63,028 nucleotides of DNA from Chloroflexota bacterium. Its GTDB lineage: Bacteria; Chloroflexota; Dehalococcoidia; Dehalococcoidales; JAZDNC01. Below are positions 403 to 61,437 of this stretch, in pieces. A program made the translations under genes and the position numbers. The DNA lies in NCBI GenBank assembly GCA_043800335.1, contig JAZDNC010000049.1, positions 1 through 63,028 on the forward strand, written 5' to 3'. The first letter of the stretch is position 1. Each line of letters starts with the position of its first letter. Below the pieces are notes generated by a model, which was not told where the DNA came from, ran no database searches, and saw only the letters and a list, made by a program, of their open reading frames with translations.

Positions 403-477
403 TGGTAGCGGGGGTTGGACTCGAACCAACGACCTTCGGGTTATGAGCCCGACGAGCTGCCACTGCTCCACCCCGCG
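403..477 (-). tRNA. Initiator tRNA-Met (anticodon CAU), CCA encoded
   Basis: Reverse complement reads CGCGGGGTGGAGCAGTGGCAGCTCGTCGGGCTCATAACCCGAAGGTCGTTGGTTCGAGTCCAACCCCCGCTACCA. It folds as a cloverleaf with a CUCAUAA loop, GGG/CCC in the anticodon stem and an unpaired 1:72 (C x U), all typical of bacterial initiators. Confidence 0.93.
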
Positions 478-554
478 TCAACCTTAGTAGTATAGGCTAA
501 GGCGGGAAAATAAGTCAAATTTCCGCAGGCTTCGAAAAGCGTGTTGAGGTTGCT

Positions 555-8711: not shown

Positions 8712-10283
8712 TTACTTAATTTTGCTTTTAAAGAGATAAGCCATAAGGATGTCGGTCGGGGCGTAGTCGTCGGTTAAGATGAGGGCTTCCCTGGCTTTAA
8801 GGTAGTCCTCCAGCTTCGCCTCATCGTGGGGGTAGGCATAGGCAATTTCCCCCCCGCTACTCGCAAACTGTCTCAGGTCGGCGAGGTCAATGGCGCGGTC
8901 GGTGGCGGCGATGACAAATGTAGTCCTGCCGACGCCATCCCAGTTACGGCTGGTGCCAAAGAGATAGACGTGCCGGAAGACCTGTTCCAGTGTCTTCACG
9001 AAAGAGGGCATGTACCTGCCTTCGCTATAGTTGTCAACGATGTTGACCAGATAGATGCCGTTATCCTCCAGGGTTGCCTTGACCAGACGGTCAAACTCCA
9101 GAGTGGTCAGATGGTAAGGGGTAGCCAGGTCGTTGAAGACGTCACCGATTATATAGTTATACTTATACCCTCCCTCACGCTCAATCAGGAATAGCCGGGC
9201 ATCCTCATTGTAGGTTCTGACGCTCGTGTCAAGTGGGAGTCCCAGCTCAGCGTGGGCGACCTCTGTCACCAGCGGGTCAATCTCGGCGACATCGTTAATG
9301 CTCCCGGGGTAAACTGTCTCCATGAAGCGGGGGAAGGAGTACCCCCCGCCGCCGAGATGGAGAAGTCGGGGGACGCGATTTTCTCCGGCGGTGTAGCTTA
9401 CAATTTCGGTGAAGATTTTGAGATATTCGTACTGGAGCCTAGTCGGGTCGTCGGGCAACACGTAGCTGTGAACCAGACAGTCCAGAGCAAGCACCTTGAT
9501 CCCTCCCGCCTCATCCCAGACGCCGATGGTGTAGTAGTTGGACTCCCTCGTATGACTCGCAGTACTACCCGCTTTTAATGGAGAGAAGATGGCGGTAAAA
9601 ATGGCTAAGACAACCGCCGCCCATATCACGATATTTCTCAAGGAGAGGCGCCACCGGTCCGGAATCTTGAAAAGAAACCAGGCAAGCACGGCAGTCAGGA
9701 GTAAGGCAACCGCCACCAGCCTGACCGTCATTCGGGTGCCGAACCAGAGGATGAAGTAGAAGCCGGTCATAAAGGTGCCGAGGATGGAGCCGACGGTAGA
9801 GCAGGCGTACACCGACCCCACGATGCTTCCGGTCTGACCGATTTCCGCCAGAGCCAGCTTGATGACAAGGGGCGACACCATGCTGAGGATAACGGCGGGC
9901 AGAAGAAAGATAAGTGAGGTCTTCAGAATGAAATTCGCCATCAAGGGTAGGCCGTTGAACCAGCCCCTGGCGATAACAAAGCCGAGGGCGGGCACGATAG
10001 CTATGGTCGCCCAGCTTCCGGCTAACATTATGATGACCAGAGCCAGGGGGTAGGGATATCTGTCGGCGAGCTTGCCGCCCAGGTAGTTACCCAGCGCTAT
10101 CCCTGCCAGGATTACCCCGATGATGCTGGTCCAGGTGTAGAGCGAGACACCGATGTAAGGCGCAAGGATTCTCGAGGCGATGAGCTCTATCACCATGACG
10201 CAGAAGCTATTGATGAAGACAATAGCCATTGATTTCCAGAGGGTAATCGCACGGTTCACGCTAGCCTCGCTAAACGCTACCAA
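8712..10283 (-). CDS. Fused membrane (MFS-like) / spermidine synthase-like protein
   Basis: About 7 TM helices at the N-terminus, then a SAM-fold region with LHLGGGGYSFPR and IIGDVFND. Confidence 0.75.
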   Translation of the reverse strand: MVAFSEASVNRAITLWKSMAIVFINSFCVMVIELIASRILAPYIGVSLYTWTSIIGVILAGIALGNYLGGKLADRYPYPLALVIIMLAGSWATIAIVPALGFVIARGWFNGLPLMANFILKTSLIFLLPAVILSMVSPLVIKLALAEIGQTGSIVGSVYACSTVGSILGTFMTGFYFILWFGTRMTVRLVAVALLLTAVLAWFLFKIPDRWRLSLRNIVIWAAVVLAIFTAIFSPLKAGSTASHTRESNYYTIGVWDEAGGIKVLALDCLVHSYVLPDDPTRLQYEYLKIFTEIVSYTAGENRVPRLLHLGGGGYSFPRFMETVYPGSINDVAEIDPLVTEVAHAELGLPLDTSVRTYNEDARLFLIEREGGYKYNYIIGDVFNDLATPYHLTTLEFDRLVKATLEDNGIYLVNIVDNYSEGRYMPSFVKTLEQVFRHVYLFGTSRNWDGVGRTTFVIAATDRAIDLADLRQFASSGGEIAYAYPHDEAKLEDYLKAREALILTDDYAPTDILMAYLFKSKIK

Positions 10284-37228: not shown

Positions 37229-38263
37229 CTACCTGACGTATGCCTTCCTCATGACTACCGATAGTTCCGCCAGAAGTCTGAGCGCCGTCTCCGCCGCCTC
37301 TTCGCTCAGGGTCGCCAGCCCGCAGGATGGGGTGAGCAGCCCGTGCTCGGCAAGCGACTCAAAGCGAATACCCTTGCGGGTAAAGGGGGCGATGGCTTCC
37401 TCCAGCCGGTCTTTGAGACTGGAGACGGTCTCCCTTTTAAGCTCGTCCTCGCCGTTGGGCACAATCCCCCAGGCGACCGCTCCGCCCCTCTGGATGAATT
37501 TGCCCACCTCAGCCGGGTAGAGACTGAAAGGCTGGGCGTAGTTATAGGCATCGAAGCTCAGGATGTCGGTTGAAGTGGAAAGGAGTAACTGCCAGTCGGT
37601 ATTGCCGCAGCAGTGGATGCCCTTGAGTCCCCTGATGCCTCCGAACACCTCTTCCAGAAGCTTCTGGGCCTTCTCTTTAGAAATCACCACGTAGGCAGAG
37701 CCGAGGGAGACCAGGTAAGGCTCGTCAACAAAGACAATGGTGTTCTTGAAGACCTTGGCCAGCTCCCTCTCCTGCCAGCCGGCTTTGAGGCGCAGGAGCT
37801 TGGCGGTGAGGTCGGCAAGGTTCTCATCGTAGATTAGGGGCTGACCCCTCCTGTCTTTCACCGTCAGTCCGAAGCTGACCGGACCCGTGACCTGTCCCTT
37901 GACTGCTATCGGCGAGATGCTGTTCTGGGCGAGGAACTCATACAGCCCTTCGGCATACTCCCGGCTCACCGGGAACCGGTCGACATTGTTCTCAAGATAA
38001 GTGATGTAAAGCCGTTCCATATCCCTGTCCGAGATGCCGCTCGGGTCGACATAGATTCTCTTCTCGTCTTCTTCTATCACCACACCGGGCAGTCCCTCGC
38101 TGAACTGGACGTACATGTTCTCTCGGAACGTGCGCCGGGGTAGCTGGGGCCAGCAAGGGATTTCTTTAAGATACTTTGCCACCAGCTCACAGGCGGTTCT
38201 GGCACTGGTATGGGGCAGACTGCCAATCATGGTGGGAAGTAAACCAAATCTGGTGTCAGGCAC
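37229..38263 (-). CDS. Zn-dependent thiol methyltransferase of the MetE-C-terminal/URO-D-like superfamily (candidate core methionine synthase)
   Basis: 344 aa. GSLPH near the N-terminus, IHCCGN (His-x-Cys) and PSCGL (Cys) as Zn-ligand-like motifs. Sits inside the SAM-cycle cluster. Confidence 0.5.
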   Translation of the reverse strand: MPDTRFGLLPTMIGSLPHTSARTACELVAKYLKEIPCWPQLPRRTFRENMYVQFSEGLPGVVIEEDEKRIYVDPSGISDRDMERLYITYLENNVDRFPVSREYAEGLYEFLAQNSISPIAVKGQVTGPVSFGLTVKDRRGQPLIYDENLADLTAKLLRLKAGWQERELAKVFKNTIVFVDEPYLVSLGSAYVVISKEKAQKLLEEVFGGIRGLKGIHCCGNTDWQLLLSTSTDILSFDAYNYAQPFSLYPAEVGKFIQRGGAVAWGIVPNGEDELKRETVSSLKDRLEEAIAPFTRKGIRFESLAEHGLLTPSCGLATLSEEAAETALRLLAELSVVMRKAYVR

Positions 38264-56403: not shown

Positions 56404-56447
56404 TCAAAATCATTCTTTTTCAGGCTTATTCATAAGGGGAGGTGCTC

Positions 56448-57701
56448 TTGGGTAAGACATTAGCCGAAAAGATACTTTCTGCCAAATCGGGGGTTGACGC
56501 CAAGGCGGGTGACATTGTCATCGCCAAGGTTGACCTGGCTTTCATCCAGGACACGACAGGACCCCTCGCGGCGCGCCAGTTTATCGCCGGCAAGTACAAG
56601 AAAATTGCCAAGGGTACGAAGGCGGCGGTCTTCCTCGACCACGGGGCACCCAGCCCGGTCAAGGATATGTCCAATGACCATATCTTCCTCCGCCAGTTTG
56701 CTCATGACACGGGCGCGATGCTGAGTGATATTGGCGAGGGCGCCTGCCATCAGCTCGTCTCGGAAAAGCTTGCTCGTCCTGGAGATTTAATTGTCGGCAC
56801 CGACTCCCACACGGTAACTGCCGGGGGAATCGGCGCTTTTGCCACTGGCATGGGTTCAACCGACGGTGCCATTGCCATGGCGATGGGGAAGAACTGGTTC
56901 CGCGTTCCCGAGGCGATTAATATCGCCTGCACCGGCAAGTTCCCTAAGTTTGTCTCGGGGAAAGACCTTATTCTATACATCATCGGCAAGATAGGGGCGG
57001 ACGGGGCAACCTATAAATCAATTGAGTTTACCGGCAGCGCTGTCAAGAACATATCGGTCTCAGACCGGCTCACCATCTGCAACATGGCGATTGAGGCCGG
57101 CGGTAAAACCGGCATCTTCCCATCGGACGAGCTGACCAAGGAGTATCTGGAGAGTCAGGGAAGGGTTAAGGATTACACTCCCATCGCTGCCGACAAAGAC
57201 GCGGCCTACGAGCAGACCATCAAGATTGATATTTCAAAGCTCGAGCCGGTGGTCGCCAAGCCCCACACCGTTGACAACATGGCTTACGCCAAAGATTTAA
57301 AGGGTGTAAAGATTCAGCAGGTCTATATCGGCACCTGCACCAACGGGCGCATCGAAAACATCGCCGAGGTTGCCGGCTACCTGAAAGGCAAGAAGGTTCA
57401 CTCCGGCACCAGGCTGGTCATCGGGCCCGCCTCACGTAAGGTTTTGCTTGACTCCATCCGGGCGGGCTACATCGAGACGCTGGTCGAAGCTGGTGCAGCG
57501 ATTGTCACCCCGGGCTGCGGTGCATGCCTCGGCGTCCACCAGGGTGTACTGGGCGACAAAGAAAACTGCCTTTCCACCGCCAACCGCAACTTCAAGGGCA
57601 GGATGGGCAACCCTGACGCCTTTGTTTATCTCGGCTCCCCGGCAACGGCGGCGGCGACGGCGCTCCGCGGTGAAATCACCGACCCGAGAGAAATTTTCTA
57701 G
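56448..57701 (+). CDS. leuC: Aconitase-superfamily dehydratase large subunit (3-isopropylmalate/homoaconitate/aconitate type, about 418 aa short form)
   Basis: GKTLAEKIL N-terminus, DSHT, Fe-S ligands GTCTNGR and PGCGACLG. TTG 56448 lies after a GGGGAGG SD. Confidence 0.85.
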   Translation: MGKTLAEKILSAKSGVDAKAGDIVIAKVDLAFIQDTTGPLAARQFIAGKYKKIAKGTKAAVFLDHGAPSPVKDMSNDHIFLRQFAHDTGAMLSDIGEGACHQLVSEKLARPGDLIVGTDSHTVTAGGIGAFATGMGSTDGAIAMAMGKNWFRVPEAINIACTGKFPKFVSGKDLILYIIGKIGADGATYKSIEFTGSAVKNISVSDRLTICNMAIEAGGKTGIFPSDELTKEYLESQGRVKDYTPIAADKDAAYEQTIKIDISKLEPVVAKPHTVDNMAYAKDLKGVKIQQVYIGTCTNGRIENIAEVAGYLKGKKVHSGTRLVIGPASRKVLLDSIRAGYIETLVEAGAAIVTPGCGACLGVHQGVLGDKENCLSTANRNFKGRMGNPDAFVYLGSPATAAATALRGEITDPREIF

Positions 57702-57739
57702 GGTCTACTCATAAAGAATATTGACATTGAGAGGTAAAG

Positions 57740-58234
57740 ATGCTGACCGGAAGAGCTTTTAAATTCGGCGATGATATCTCGACTGACCTCATCATTCCCG
57801 GGAAATACGCCCAGATTCGGAGCAATCTCCCCGAGCTTGCCAAGCACGTTATGGAGGACGCCGACCCTACCTTCGTCAAGAAGGTAAAGGAGGGAGACTT
57901 TATCGTGGGTGGCAAGAACTTCGGGCTTGGCTCATCCCGCGAGCACGCGCCTCTCGTCATCAAAATGGCAGGGGTTAAAGCCATCCTCGCCAAGTCCGTC
58001 GCCCGCATCTTTTTCCGTAACGCCATCAATCTGGGGCTTCCCGTTCTTATCTGTGATACGGATAAGATTAAAGACGGCGATACGCTTGAGGTTGACCTGA
58101 AAGCAGGCAAAATCAAGGACAAGACCAATGGCGCTGAGCTTACTTTCGGCAAGATTCCCGATGTCATGCTCCGCATCCTTAATGATGGCGGGCTTCTGCC
58201 GTATCTTGAGAAATACGGGGATATTAAAGTCTAA
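57740..58234 (+). CDS. leuD: Aconitase-superfamily dehydratase small subunit
   Basis: GDDISTD.IIPG, GKNFG.GSSREHA. Confidence 0.85.
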   Translation: MLTGRAFKFGDDISTDLIIPGKYAQIRSNLPELAKHVMEDADPTFVKKVKEGDFIVGGKNFGLGSSREHAPLVIKMAGVKAILAKSVARIFFRNAINLGLPVLICDTDKIKDGDTLEVDLKAGKIKDKTNGAELTFGKIPDVMLRILNDGGLLPYLEKYGDIKV

Positions 58235-58290
58235 AGACGAAACACGTGTGTAACAGGATTATGGTAATAATCTCACTCAGGAGGCGCTAG

Positions 58291-59370
58291 ATGCCCTACA
58301 GAGTTACGCTCCTACCCGGTGACGGTATCGGTCCCGAGGTAACCGAGGCGACGCTACGGGTGCTTGATGCCACCGGCGTCAAGTTCAGCTGGGATACTTT
58401 TGAGGTGGGGGAATCTGCCCTCAAGAAGTACAAGACCCCACTGCCTGACGTGGTTCTGGAGTCAATCAGGAAAAACAAGGTCGGACTGAAGGGTCCGGTG
58501 ACCACGCCCGTCGGCTATGGCTTCAGGAGCGTCAACGTGGCTATTCGTAAAGCCCTAAATCTCTACGCCTGCCTCCGCCCCTGCAAGAATTATGCCGGTA
58601 TCGCCTCTCTCTATAGTGGCATCGACATGGTTATCGTCCGCGAGAACATGGAGGATACCTACGCCGGGGTGGAGTTTGAAAAGGGGAAACCGGAGACTTT
58701 AAAGCTTATCAAGTATATCCACGACTCCGGTGCCGGCGAGCTTCCCGCCGACTCGGGCATCAGCATCAAGATGATTTCCGAGACGGGAAGCCGCCGCGTC
58801 ATCAAGTTCGCCTTTGACTATGCCAGAGCCAACGGGCGGAAGAAGGTCACCCTCATCCACAAGGCGAACATCATGAAGTTCACCGACGGGCTCTTCCTCG
58901 CCGTGGGCAGGGATGTGGCAAAGGCGTATCCGGGGATAGAGTTCCAGGACTTAATCTCCGATAACGTGAACGCACAGCTTATTCTGCGTCCCCAGCAGTT
59001 TGAGGTTATCGTGGCGCCGAATCTTTTCGGCGACCTTATCTCTGACCTCTGCGCCGCCCTCGTCGGGGGACTCGGGGTTGCCCCGGGGGCTAATCTGGGG
59101 GACGAGCTGGCGGTATTTGAAGCCACCCACGGCAGCGCCCCGGACATCGCCGGGCAGAACAAGGCTAACCCCATGGCGCTTATGCTCACCAGCGTCATGA
59201 TGCTGAGGCACCTGGGGGAGAAAGCCGCCGCCGACAGGCTGGAGAAAGCCATCACCGCGGTCATCGCCGAGGGCAAGTATGTCACTGCCGACCTCAAGAC
59301 GAAAGATAAGGCTTCAGCCGTCGGCACCTCTCAGGTGGCGGATGCTATTATAAAGAGGCTTAAAGCATAG
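58291..59370 (+). CDS. Isocitrate/isopropylmalate dehydrogenase family, IDH-type substrate motif
   Basis: LPGDGIGPEV; GFRSVNVAIRKALNLYACLRP (S-x-N as in isocitrate DH; not seen in my recollection of E. coli LeuB); NLFGDL.SD. Confidence 0.8.
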   Translation: MPYRVTLLPGDGIGPEVTEATLRVLDATGVKFSWDTFEVGESALKKYKTPLPDVVLESIRKNKVGLKGPVTTPVGYGFRSVNVAIRKALNLYACLRPCKNYAGIASLYSGIDMVIVRENMEDTYAGVEFEKGKPETLKLIKYIHDSGAGELPADSGISIKMISETGSRRVIKFAFDYARANGRKKVTLIHKANIMKFTDGLFLAVGRDVAKAYPGIEFQDLISDNVNAQLILRPQQFEVIVAPNLFGDLISDLCAALVGGLGVAPGANLGDELAVFEATHGSAPDIAGQNKANPMALMLTSVMMLRHLGEKAAADRLEKAITAVIAEGKYVTADLKTKDKASAVGTSQVADAIIKRLKA

Positions 59371-59422
59371 AAATCGGAATCAATGTCAGCTTTGCTGACC
59401 TGGAATAGCGGGAGAGGAAACA

Positions 59423-60661
59423 ATGGGTAAGATTTACTTTATTGATGTCACCAACCGTGACGGCGTTCAGACCGCCAAGCTGGGACTCGCCAAGCTGGAG
59501 AAGACCATGATTAACCTGTATCTCAACGAGATGGGCGTCTTCCAGTCCGAGTTCGGCTTCCCGACGACGAGGCACGAGACCAACTACCTCAAAGCCAACC
59601 TGGAGCTGGCGAAGATGGGAGTCTTGAGCCCGATGCGTCTCGAGGGCTGGATACGCGGCATCCCCGAGGACGTTGAGCTCACCTTCAAGCTCGTCCCGGA
59701 GCTGGAGCACCTGAACCTCTCGGTCTCCACCTCCGAACAGATGATTAACGGTAAGTACCAGGGGAGAAGAAAAAAAGAGGACATCACCAACGAGATGGTG
59801 GAAGCCCTGAAGCTCGCCAAGAAGTACGGGGCTAAGACTGTCGGGGTCAACTCCGAAGACGCCTCCCGGACCGACCTGGACTTCCTACTTAAGTTCGGTA
59901 TGGCCGCCAAGATGAATGGGGCAGACCGCTTCCGCTACTGCGACACCCTGGGTTATGATAACCCTTTTACCATTTACGAGTCGTCTAAAGCCCTGGCCCA
60001 GTGGATTGAGCTGCCCATCGAGCTTCACTGCCACGGCGACCTGGGCATGGCGGTGGCTAACTCCCTCGCCGGCGCCAAGGGCGCTATTGACGGCGGGCAG
60101 GACGCCTATATCAACACCACGGTGAACGGCATCGGAGAGAGAGCCGGCAATGCCGACCTGGTCGCCACAGTCCTGGCAGTAGTCAAGTCAAAGAACTTCG
60201 CCGGCAAGTACGAGCTGGGGCAGCCGATTGACCTCTCCAAGTCACACAAGATAAGTCATTTTGCCAGCGATGCCTTCGGTGTGCCCATTCCCATCAACCA
60301 GCCCGGCGTCGGCGCTAACGCCTTCGCCCATGCCTCCGGCATCCACGCCGACGGGGTACTGAAAGATGTCCATAACTACGAGCTTTATGGCTTCGAGGAG
60401 CTGGGACGCGGCGAACCAATCAGGGTAGAGACGGGAAGACAGATAATCTCCGGTGAATACAGCGGTATCTCCGGCTTCAGGCACATCATGGGCAAGAGGT
60501 CGGTCGAGTTTGCCGATGCCACAGAGGCGGAGACGGGTCTGGAGCGGGCGCGCTATGCCACCGTCGAGTCCCAGAGCCCGCTGGTGGAGGATGAGCTGGT
60601 CTTTATTTGCAAGTATCCCCAGATTGTCAGGAAGCTCCTGACGCTAACCCCGCTAGATTAG
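59423..60661 (+). CDS. Homocitrate/2-isopropylmalate/Re-citrate synthase family (DRE-TIM), no LeuA regulatory domain
   Basis: DVTNRDGVQ, HCHGDLGMAVAN, H.SGIH.DG. 412 aa. Confidence 0.8.
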   Translation: MGKIYFIDVTNRDGVQTAKLGLAKLEKTMINLYLNEMGVFQSEFGFPTTRHETNYLKANLELAKMGVLSPMRLEGWIRGIPEDVELTFKLVPELEHLNLSVSTSEQMINGKYQGRRKKEDITNEMVEALKLAKKYGAKTVGVNSEDASRTDLDFLLKFGMAAKMNGADRFRYCDTLGYDNPFTIYESSKALAQWIELPIELHCHGDLGMAVANSLAGAKGAIDGGQDAYINTTVNGIGERAGNADLVATVLAVVKSKNFAGKYELGQPIDLSKSHKISHFASDAFGVPIPINQPGVGANAFAHASGIHADGVLKDVHNYELYGFEELGRGEPIRVETGRQIISGEYSGISGFRHIMGKRSVEFADATEAETGLERARYATVESQSPLVEDELVFICKYPQIVRKLLTLTPLD

Positions 60662-60737: not shown

Positions 60738-60986
60738 ATGTTTCTGGCAGCACAAATTAGCCTGTATCCCCTGCGTCAAACGCACTTTACCCCCGGGATA
60801 AAGCGGGCACAGGAAATCTTTGAGAAACACGGACTCACCGTTGAGGTGGGAGCGATGAGCAGCGTGCTTTCTGGAGAGTCGGAGGCTCTTTTTAGTGCCC
60901 TGAGAGAGGTCTTCGAGACGCTGGCGGAGAGCGGTGAGCTGGTCATGATGACGACCTTCTCCAACGCCTGCCCCGTCGGCAGATAA
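60738..60986 (+). CDS. YkoF-related small protein (ACT-like fold, thiamine/HMP-binding family)
   Basis: 82 aa. AQISLYPL...G..VEVG.MSS.L.GE. Confidence 0.5.
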   Translation: MFLAAQISLYPLRQTHFTPGIKRAQEIFEKHGLTVEVGAMSSVLSGESEALFSALREVFETLAESGELVMMTTFSNACPVGR

Positions 60987-60990
60987 AACA

Positions 60991-61019
60991 AACCGAAGCG
61001 GAGTAAGTCCGCTTCGGTT
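60991..61019. terminator. Bidirectional hairpin between convergent genes
   Basis: Perfect 12-bp stem aaccgaagcgga / tccgcttcggtt with loop gtaag. Confidence 0.65.
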
Positions 61020-61047
61020 GCTTCGTTCCAGAATAAGTCAGGCTAGT

Positions 61048-61272
61048 CTACGCTACGGAGACCACCTGCTTGACCTCGGGCACTTCCTTCTTGAGCACCT
61101 GCTCAATACCCCTCTTCAGGGTTAAAGTTGCCATTGGTCAGCCGCCGCAGGCACCGGTAAGTCTGACCTTGACCGTGCCTTTCTCGTCCACCCCGACAAG
61201 CTCGACATCACCCCCATCCTGCTGGAGGGCAGGTCTTATCTTGGCGAGCGCCGCCTCAACCTTTTCCTTCAT
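61048..61272 (-). CDS. Nfu/NifU-C-terminal-domain Fe-S scaffold protein with in-frame TGA at the second Cys of CxxC (selenocysteine candidate, nonsense allele or base-call error)
   Basis: Hand translation: [44 protein letters not shown][TGA][36 protein letters not shown] 7 nt before ATG 61272. TGA at 61138-61140. Confidence 0.7.
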
Positions 61273-61437
61273 AATCTTTCTCCTTTCGGACTGACTTGAA
61301 ACGTTGTCCGTTCCATGAAATATTACTGTCTAACTCTTATTTTACATGTTTTCTACTACAAAGCGCAACTATAAAGATTAGGCTACCTTGGCTTTTAGTC
61401 GGCGACGCGAGGAGTGAGAGAGTCCTGACAGCCCGAA

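Follow-up and report, generated by a model that had tools for sequence, protein, structure and literature searches.

A UGA-interrupted nfu gene from a Chloroflexota bacterium points to a candidate family of selenocysteine-containing Fe–S cluster carriers

The recoding of UGA as selenocysteine (Sec) is a well-understood process, and the list of selenoprotein families continues to grow. In Fe–S carriers of the Cys-type Nfu family, two protomers bridge an Fe–S cluster through their CxxC motifs, and methanococci have selenium-regulated Sec and Cys isoenzymes of hydrogenase and formate dehydrogenase. The only case of selenium in the Fe–S cluster delivery machinery is—to our knowledge—the HesB-like A-type carrier. 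This HesB-like family (IscA/A-type carrier; TIGR01911), with the motif UxGP, is a verified selenoprotein family (PMC13188914, Table 1). The model of the bacterial SECIS (bSECIS) has an apical loop of 3–9 nt and an upper stem of 4–16 bp, G within the first two nucleotides of the loop (most often as GG or GU), a distance of 16–37 nt from the UGA to the apical loop and a minimum free energy (MFE) of -7.5 kcal/mol or lower (PMC13188914).

Here we analyse a stretch of 63,028 nucleotides from a Chloroflexota bacterium, referred to throughout as the window, which contains an nfu gene with an in-frame UGA at the codon for the second Cys of its CxxC motif. We consider it very likely that this gene encodes a 74-residue Nfu Fe–S carrier with the motif CGGU, in which the UGA is recoded as Sec by the standard bacterial route. 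The features on which this reading is built are as follows.

61280..61284, minus strand: Shine–Dalgarno sequence AGGAG, 7 nt 5' of the ATG, read from the sequence.
61048..61272, minus strand: nfu gene of 74 codons, NifU C-terminal/Nfu domain (PF01106), with one UGA read through.
61138..61140, minus strand: in-frame UGA in place of the second Cys codon in GAC-G-G-(C/U)-P, proposed to encode Sec.
61108..61122, minus strand: hairpin 1, ACCCU-GAAGA-GGGGU, a putative accessory stem in the spacer ahead of hairpin 2, over codons T-L-K-R-G, from the MFE fold.
61091..61106, minus strand: hairpin 2, UUGAGC-AGGU-GCUCAA, the proposed SelB-binding SECIS apex, over codons I-E-Q-V-L-K, 31 nt past the UGA.
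60981..61019, minus strand: intrinsic-terminator-like hairpin (12 bp) and T-run, after the TAG of the full-length ORF.

With Cys-type Nfu proteins (PF01106; 2z51, 1xhj, human NFU1 2m5o and the C-terminal domain of bacterial NfuA) the predicted protein is collinear over the whole domain and has the motif GAC-x-G-C/U-P...TLK in common; it differs from them in the UGA-encoded second motif position and in the conserved hairpin 31 nt downstream. Like the HesB-like selenoprotein, it would be an Fe–S carrier with Sec in place of a cluster-ligand Cys, but the fold and family are unrelated (A-type versus Nfu) and the motif is a different one. Hairpin 2 resembles bacterial SECIS elements (bSECISearch model; E. 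coli fdhF type): it is a stem–loop inside the ORF past the UGA, with a stem of 6 bp and a loop of 4 nt, both within the ranges of the model, and the loop (A-G-G-U) has G in second place followed by G, in agreement with the loop rule. Its apex, GC-AGGU-GC, resembles that of the E. coli fdhF SECIS, GCA-GGUC-UGC. It departs from such elements in its extreme spacing (37 nt from UGA to loop, the upper limit of the model, compared with 20 nt for hairpin 1), in the presence of a second conserved hairpin in the spacer, and in a predicted strength slightly under the cut-off of -7.5 kcal/mol (-7.1 kcal/mol for hairpin 2 alone; -13.7 kcal/mol for both hairpins). The likeness to the methanococcal isoform pairs lies in 14 loci that hold both a Cys-nfu and a Sec-nfu; the window itself has the Sec copy only.

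The original prediction had read this frame as an Nfu domain from end to end, split by the TGA into pieces too short for the list of ORFs, and both parts of that reading were confirmed. In our own listing of ORFs, the gene is represented only by a 44-aa and a 28-aa piece. With Cys substituted at the TGA, the translation matches the Pfam NifU family over profile positions 1–67 of 67 (E = 4.7e-31; 107.2 bits against a cut-off of 27), and the TGA is the only defect in an otherwise complete 74-codon domain. The best-matching solved structures are 2z51 (Arabidopsis CnfU/Nfu2, E = 2.3e-21) and then 1xhj (S. epidermidis NifU). Alignment with homologues bears out the placement of the TGA at the second Cys of the CxxC motif: the column is Cys (GACGGCPM) in all 10 of the top Cys-type single-domain Nfu homologues retrieved from the match list, and identity to single-domain Cys forms (from Chloroflexota, Clostridia and Aminicenantes metagenome-assembled genomes, MAGs) is 73–88%. 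The first Cys is kept, and the motif is complete only if the UGA encodes Sec or Cys. The predicted flanking signals were also found; the hairpin of the terminator-like element spans 61019..60991, with the T-run next to it, and is placed after the stop codon TAG (61050..61048), not after the TGA. Ten of the 55 long ORFs in the window end in TGA, and UGA is therefore not globally reassigned there.

We scanned 185,579 species-representative GTDB genomes with a degenerate pattern that required TGA at the second-Cys codon of nfu. The scan matched 49 loci, 48 of which are intact NifU-domain ORFs with TGA; the other (L024) is a chance match. Among metagenome contigs, the same TGA-requiring scan matched 31 loci, including 29 true Sec-Nfu genes. 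Orthologues with TGA, a search for which had been suggested with the original prediction, are thus represented by a syntenic relative (L053/L054, below) and by about 75 further bacterial or metagenomic loci. Those in species genomes belong nearly all to Desulfotomaculia and their relatives (Desulforamulus, Desulfofundulus, Pelotomaculum, Desulfoscipio, Desulfocucumis, Desulforudis and others), type strains included; isolates that carry Sec-nfu include Desulforamulus putei DSM 12395, Pelotomaculum propionicicum, Desulfofundulus australicus and Desulfoscipio geothermicus. Loci beyond this group include MAGs of Chloroflexota (L011), Clostridia (L025) and Chitinophagales (L023), and four metagenomic Sec-Nfu proteins are near that of the window (L064, L066, L082 and L086), one of which (L082) has both the TGA and the ykoF neighbour found in the window. 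In a Peptococcaceae MAG (L007, 2612–2980, minus strand), two nfu genes lie in tandem, with TGA in both.

Both hairpins that the original prediction had described downstream of the UGA are present at the positions listed above. Starting at the UGA, a stretch of 70 nt has a predicted folding energy of -26.7 kcal/mol (z = -3.4), a stability reached by 0 of 200 shuffles, and both hairpins are in the MFE fold. An outer long-range helix in the window (UGACC/GGUCA, GGCA/UGCC) was set aside as incidental, being neither part of the RNAalifold consensus nor kept in L053. Counting the U of the UGA as position 1, UUGAGC-NNNN-GCUCAA occupies positions 35–50 in almost all Sec forms (codons I-E-R/Q-x-L-K), with the loops GGGU (29), GGUC (18), GGAU (6), GGUU (5) and AGGU (3, the clade of the window). 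When the count is confined to sequences with the peptide GIE[RQK]xLK and Cys forms serve as the control, hairpin 2 is fully paired in 61 of 64 Sec forms versus 2 of 15 Cys forms (Fisher p = 2e-10, a value overstated because the samples are phylogenetically clustered).

The constraint is visible at the level of synonymous codons. Synonymous entropy at codons +11 to +16 (ATT GAG CGG GTG CTC AAG) is 0.1–0.6 bits in Sec forms and 0.35–1.55 bits in Cys forms; in Sec forms it is 0.39 bits at +6 (ACC) and 0 bits at +9 (CAG), and mostly 1.5–2.4 bits at flanking four-fold and six-fold degenerate codons. Cys forms are variable at most codons at which Sec forms lose synonymous variation. The Thr codon of hairpin 1 is ACC in 63 of 67 Sec forms versus 5 of 15 Cys forms, and the Gln codon is CAG in 39 of 39 versus 8 of 14. 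The pairing register of hairpin 1 differs between lineages, and counting its pairs in a fixed register did not distinguish the two kinds of gene, Sec and Cys (p = 0.35); for this hairpin, only the codon-level tests did so. For the 64 forms with hairpin 2, RNAalifold returned hairpin 2 and two pairs of hairpin 1, all nearly invariant, and for all 72 Sec forms it gave no consensus structure; because hairpin 2 is invariant, no compensatory changes can be counted. A covariance model trained only on 52 Bacillota Sec forms had its sole strong match in the window at 61087–61140 (minus strand), at 58.3 bits; of the 14 Cys paralogues in the genomes used for training, 13 score lower (26–51 bits) and one higher (59.8). 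Rfam, as was to be expected, gave no match to the hairpin region (60950–61350, E ≤ 10) and, at gathering thresholds, two tRNAs only in the whole window. On the evidence of these codon comparisons, synonymous choice preserves hairpin 2 in UGA-bearing genes only, which supports the suggestion of the original prediction that this hairpin may be a SECIS apex.

Seven loci have TGA at the same Cys without hairpin 2 (L011, L066, L023, L060, L062, L065 and L071). These NifU-domain genes come from Chloroflexota, Chitinophagales and unassigned metagenome contigs, and may use a different SECIS, or some of them may be pseudogenes.

A natural comparison is provided by 14 Pelotomaculum-type genomes, in which a Cys-nfu and a Sec-nfu lie in tandem on the same strand, 434–604 bp apart (L009, L013, L019, L022, L026, L027, L035, L039, L041, L042, L070, L073, L079 and L081). 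The Cys copy is upstream of the Sec copy in L009, L013 and L019, the pairs for which orientation was examined. Within pairs, 17–20 of the 21 downstream residues are identical, and yet the predicted folding energies of positions 16–54 are -11.8 to -12.9 kcal/mol for Sec copies versus -1.5 to -9.5 kcal/mol for Cys copies; the Sec copy is the more stable in all 14 pairs, and a complete hairpin 2 is missing from 13 of the 14 Cys paralogues. Such matched paralogues serve as a natural control of unusual clarity when a SECIS is to be defined. Their arrangement suggests, speculatively, a selenium-dependent choice between isoforms.

In the mechanism that we propose, the UGA at 61140..61138 would be recoded as selenocysteine, with Sec-tRNA(Sec) delivered by SelB. 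SelB would be tethered to an mRNA stem–loop inside the coding sequence, for which hairpin 2 is the putative binding apex, and hairpin 1 may compact the 31 nt that separate hairpin 2 from the UGA. If the product works as Cys-type Nfu proteins do, each protomer would contribute a selenolate as one of its cluster ligands.

Genes for the Sec machinery (selA, selB, selD and tRNA-Sec) are absent from the 63-kb window: the scanned ORFs of the size of SelA, SelB or SelD all belong to other families (PGM, MetK, AhcY, TldD/PmbA, ThiL and others) or have no Pfam match. The window holds no convincing TGA-interrupted ORF other than nfu, and no tRNA-Sec was found near Sec-nfu at 40 loci. Dehalococcoidia include genomes with 46–49 selenoprotein genes (BSepDB paper, PMC13326102). 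In a Chloroflexota relative represented by L055 and L056, in which the neighbour gene is 82% identical to that of the window, a CMD/AhpD-like ORF (PF02627, E = 2.6e-14; L055 5050–5334, plus strand, and the same in L056 at 2190–2474) has TGA in the motif R-C-E-P-U. In L055, the hairpin CCUUGC-AGGU-GCAAGG follows 14 nt past this TGA, with the same apex, GC-AGGU-GC, as hairpin 2 of the window. CMD-like CxxU proteins are a listed selenoprotein family (PMC13188914), and the ORF in L055/L056, called as a 44-aa stub, is probably a selenoprotein.

Sequence data speak to recoding rather than to the residue inserted, and the alternative that survives best concerns that residue: the UGA would be decoded as Cys through a selC*-type tRNA(Cys) and SelB, or by near-cognate read-through, giving an ordinary Cys (or Trp) Nfu. 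We regard this as improbable. Species of selC* tRNA(Cys) occur in Clostridia and other anaerobes and are able to act in translation (PMC5389517), and Desulfoscipio geothermicus DSM 3669 (L032) has, at 442–534 (minus strand) and about 2.7 kb from its Sec-nfu, a 93-nt tRNA-Cys(GCA) (ARAGORN) that resembles tRNA-Sec (40.4 bits against the Rfam tRNA-Sec model, which has a gathering score of 47) and fits this published class (PMC5389517). Its anticodon is GCA, however, not UCA, and would not read UGA; genomes with selC* carry a full Sec apparatus (PMC5389517), and the window has no selC*-like tRNA. Moreover, 14 genomes keep a TGC/TGT paralogue beside the TGA copy, which is hard to explain if both genes give the same Cys product.

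Less room is left for the view that the TGA arose in sequencing or assembly, or through a nonsense mutation of recent date, in an nfu gene that is dead or dying; we give it a very slim chance. A single base separates TGA from TGC or TGT, the closest Cys orthologue (L050) has TGC, and the 63-kb window is without Sec machinery. Against this, the same codon is TGA in contigs that we fetched through the neighbour gene, one from NCBI (L053, GCA_041643295.1) and one from the Logan assembly of SRR23936498 (L054). The two have the same sequence, with both halves of nfu intact; their neighbour gene is 92% identical to that of the window, and homocitrate synthase, ykoF and nfu follow one another as they do there. 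Between the window and L053/L054, nfu differs at 24 of 132 bases upstream of the TGA (19 of them at third codon positions) and at 9 bases downstream, and these 33 differences show that L053/L054 come from a different organism. The TGA recurs in L064, L082, L086 and about 70 other loci. The original prediction had kept an error or recent nonsense mutation as an alternative, which this recurrence in other assemblies of diverged organisms refutes.

Also against a pseudogene, the downstream frame is open to the same stop and the terminator is placed after the full-length stop. Past the TGA, most codon changes are silent (synonymous:non-synonymous 13:4 between the window and L064, 12:4 for L086 and 18:9 for L066), and the region after the UGA is therefore translated; judged by these ratios, this part of nfu is under purifying selection. 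The Cys-to-Sec swap put forward in the original prediction draws its support from the conserved TGA and from these intact, selected flanks.

The Cys orthologue L050 shares the ykoF synteny and is 88% identical in nfu (105–332), with TGC at the Sec codon. It has kept hairpin 2 base for base and lost hairpin 1, so that the hairpin alone is not diagnostic of Sec. By identity of ykoF to that of the window (L053, 83%; L050, 69%; L082, 63%), L050 falls between Sec-bearing relatives, and we take it for an apparently recent reversion from Sec to Cys that has left a fossil SECIS behind.

Least credible of all is a true stop at the UGA, yielding a functional 44-residue N-terminal peptide and possibly a separate 28-residue peptide from the in-frame ATG at 61134, two codons past the TGA, as gene calls and GenBank entries for 44–45-residue 'NifU-like domain-containing' proteins might suggest: the 44-residue piece ends before the second cluster ligand and covers half the Pfam domain, no Shine–Dalgarno sequence lies ahead of the internal ATG, this start is not conserved (most Sec forms have Gly there, UPGA..., not Met), and the RNA-level constraint on hairpin 2 would be left unexplained.

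Returning to Sec insertion as the preferred reading, we asked how Sec-Nfu stands in current catalogues. NifU/PF01106 is not in the May 2026 table of known and predicted prokaryotic selenoprotein families, the nearest entry in which is the HesB-like A-type carrier (PMC13188914). NCBIfam release 20 has no Sec-Nfu model, its sole matches being to generic NifU and NfuA models at scores under the cut-offs of these, and a full-text literature search, covering the main text of open papers, returned no paper on a Sec-containing NifU or Nfu. Sec-Nfu is thus a candidate selenoprotein family missing from current catalogues, and its genes, from the comparative evidence given here, almost certainly encode Sec. 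GenBank and UniRef hold 44–45-aa stubs named 'NifU-like domain-containing protein' from D. putei, D. palustris, D. aeronauticus, D. hydrothermalis and D. australicus, and the stub records SHF07090.1, GBF33769.1, SHK97902.1, CCO09300.1 and SHF38771.1 end at the UGA; the Sec-nfu genes of cultured Desulfotomaculia are systematically mis-annotated.

If true, Sec-Nfu puts selenium into the core Fe–S cluster delivery machinery. A fuller scenario, which we offer tentatively and hold to be somewhat less probable than its opposite, is that in this uncatalogued family the selenolate ligates a transferable Fe–S cluster and makes its hand-off faster or redox-gated, that the neighbouring Cys paralogue forms part of a selenium-responsive switch in Fe–S maturation, and that the SECIS is a two-hairpin variant with its SelB apex at the far limit of known spacing. 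As isolates carry Sec-nfu, some of them with a Cys twin, the effect of a Sec ligand on Fe–S transfer is directly testable.

Judged from their translations by eye, the neighbours of Bacillota Sec-nfu look like a C–N hydrolase, an acetyl-CoA synthetase and an ECF sigma/anti-sigma pair, and we saw no obvious selenium or Fe–S link among those that are conserved. In the window, two long minus-strand ORFs (8712–10283, 523 aa, and 37229–38263, 344 aa) match no Pfam family at E ≤ 0.01. Next to nfu and convergent with it is an 82-aa YkoF/thiamine-binding-protein-like gene (60738–60986, plus strand), a pairing kept in L050, L053/L054 and L082. The best named relatives of the neighbouring 412-aa homocitrate/Re-citrate-synthase-like protein are from Chloroflexota/Dehalococcoidales MAGs (75–77% identity). 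At 56442–60661 (plus strand), the window encodes the large and small subunits of an aconitase/homoaconitase, an isocitrate/homoisocitrate dehydrogenase and the homocitrate-synthase-like gene; this cluster adjoins nfu in relatives too, and one homologue is named 'citrate (Re)-synthase'.
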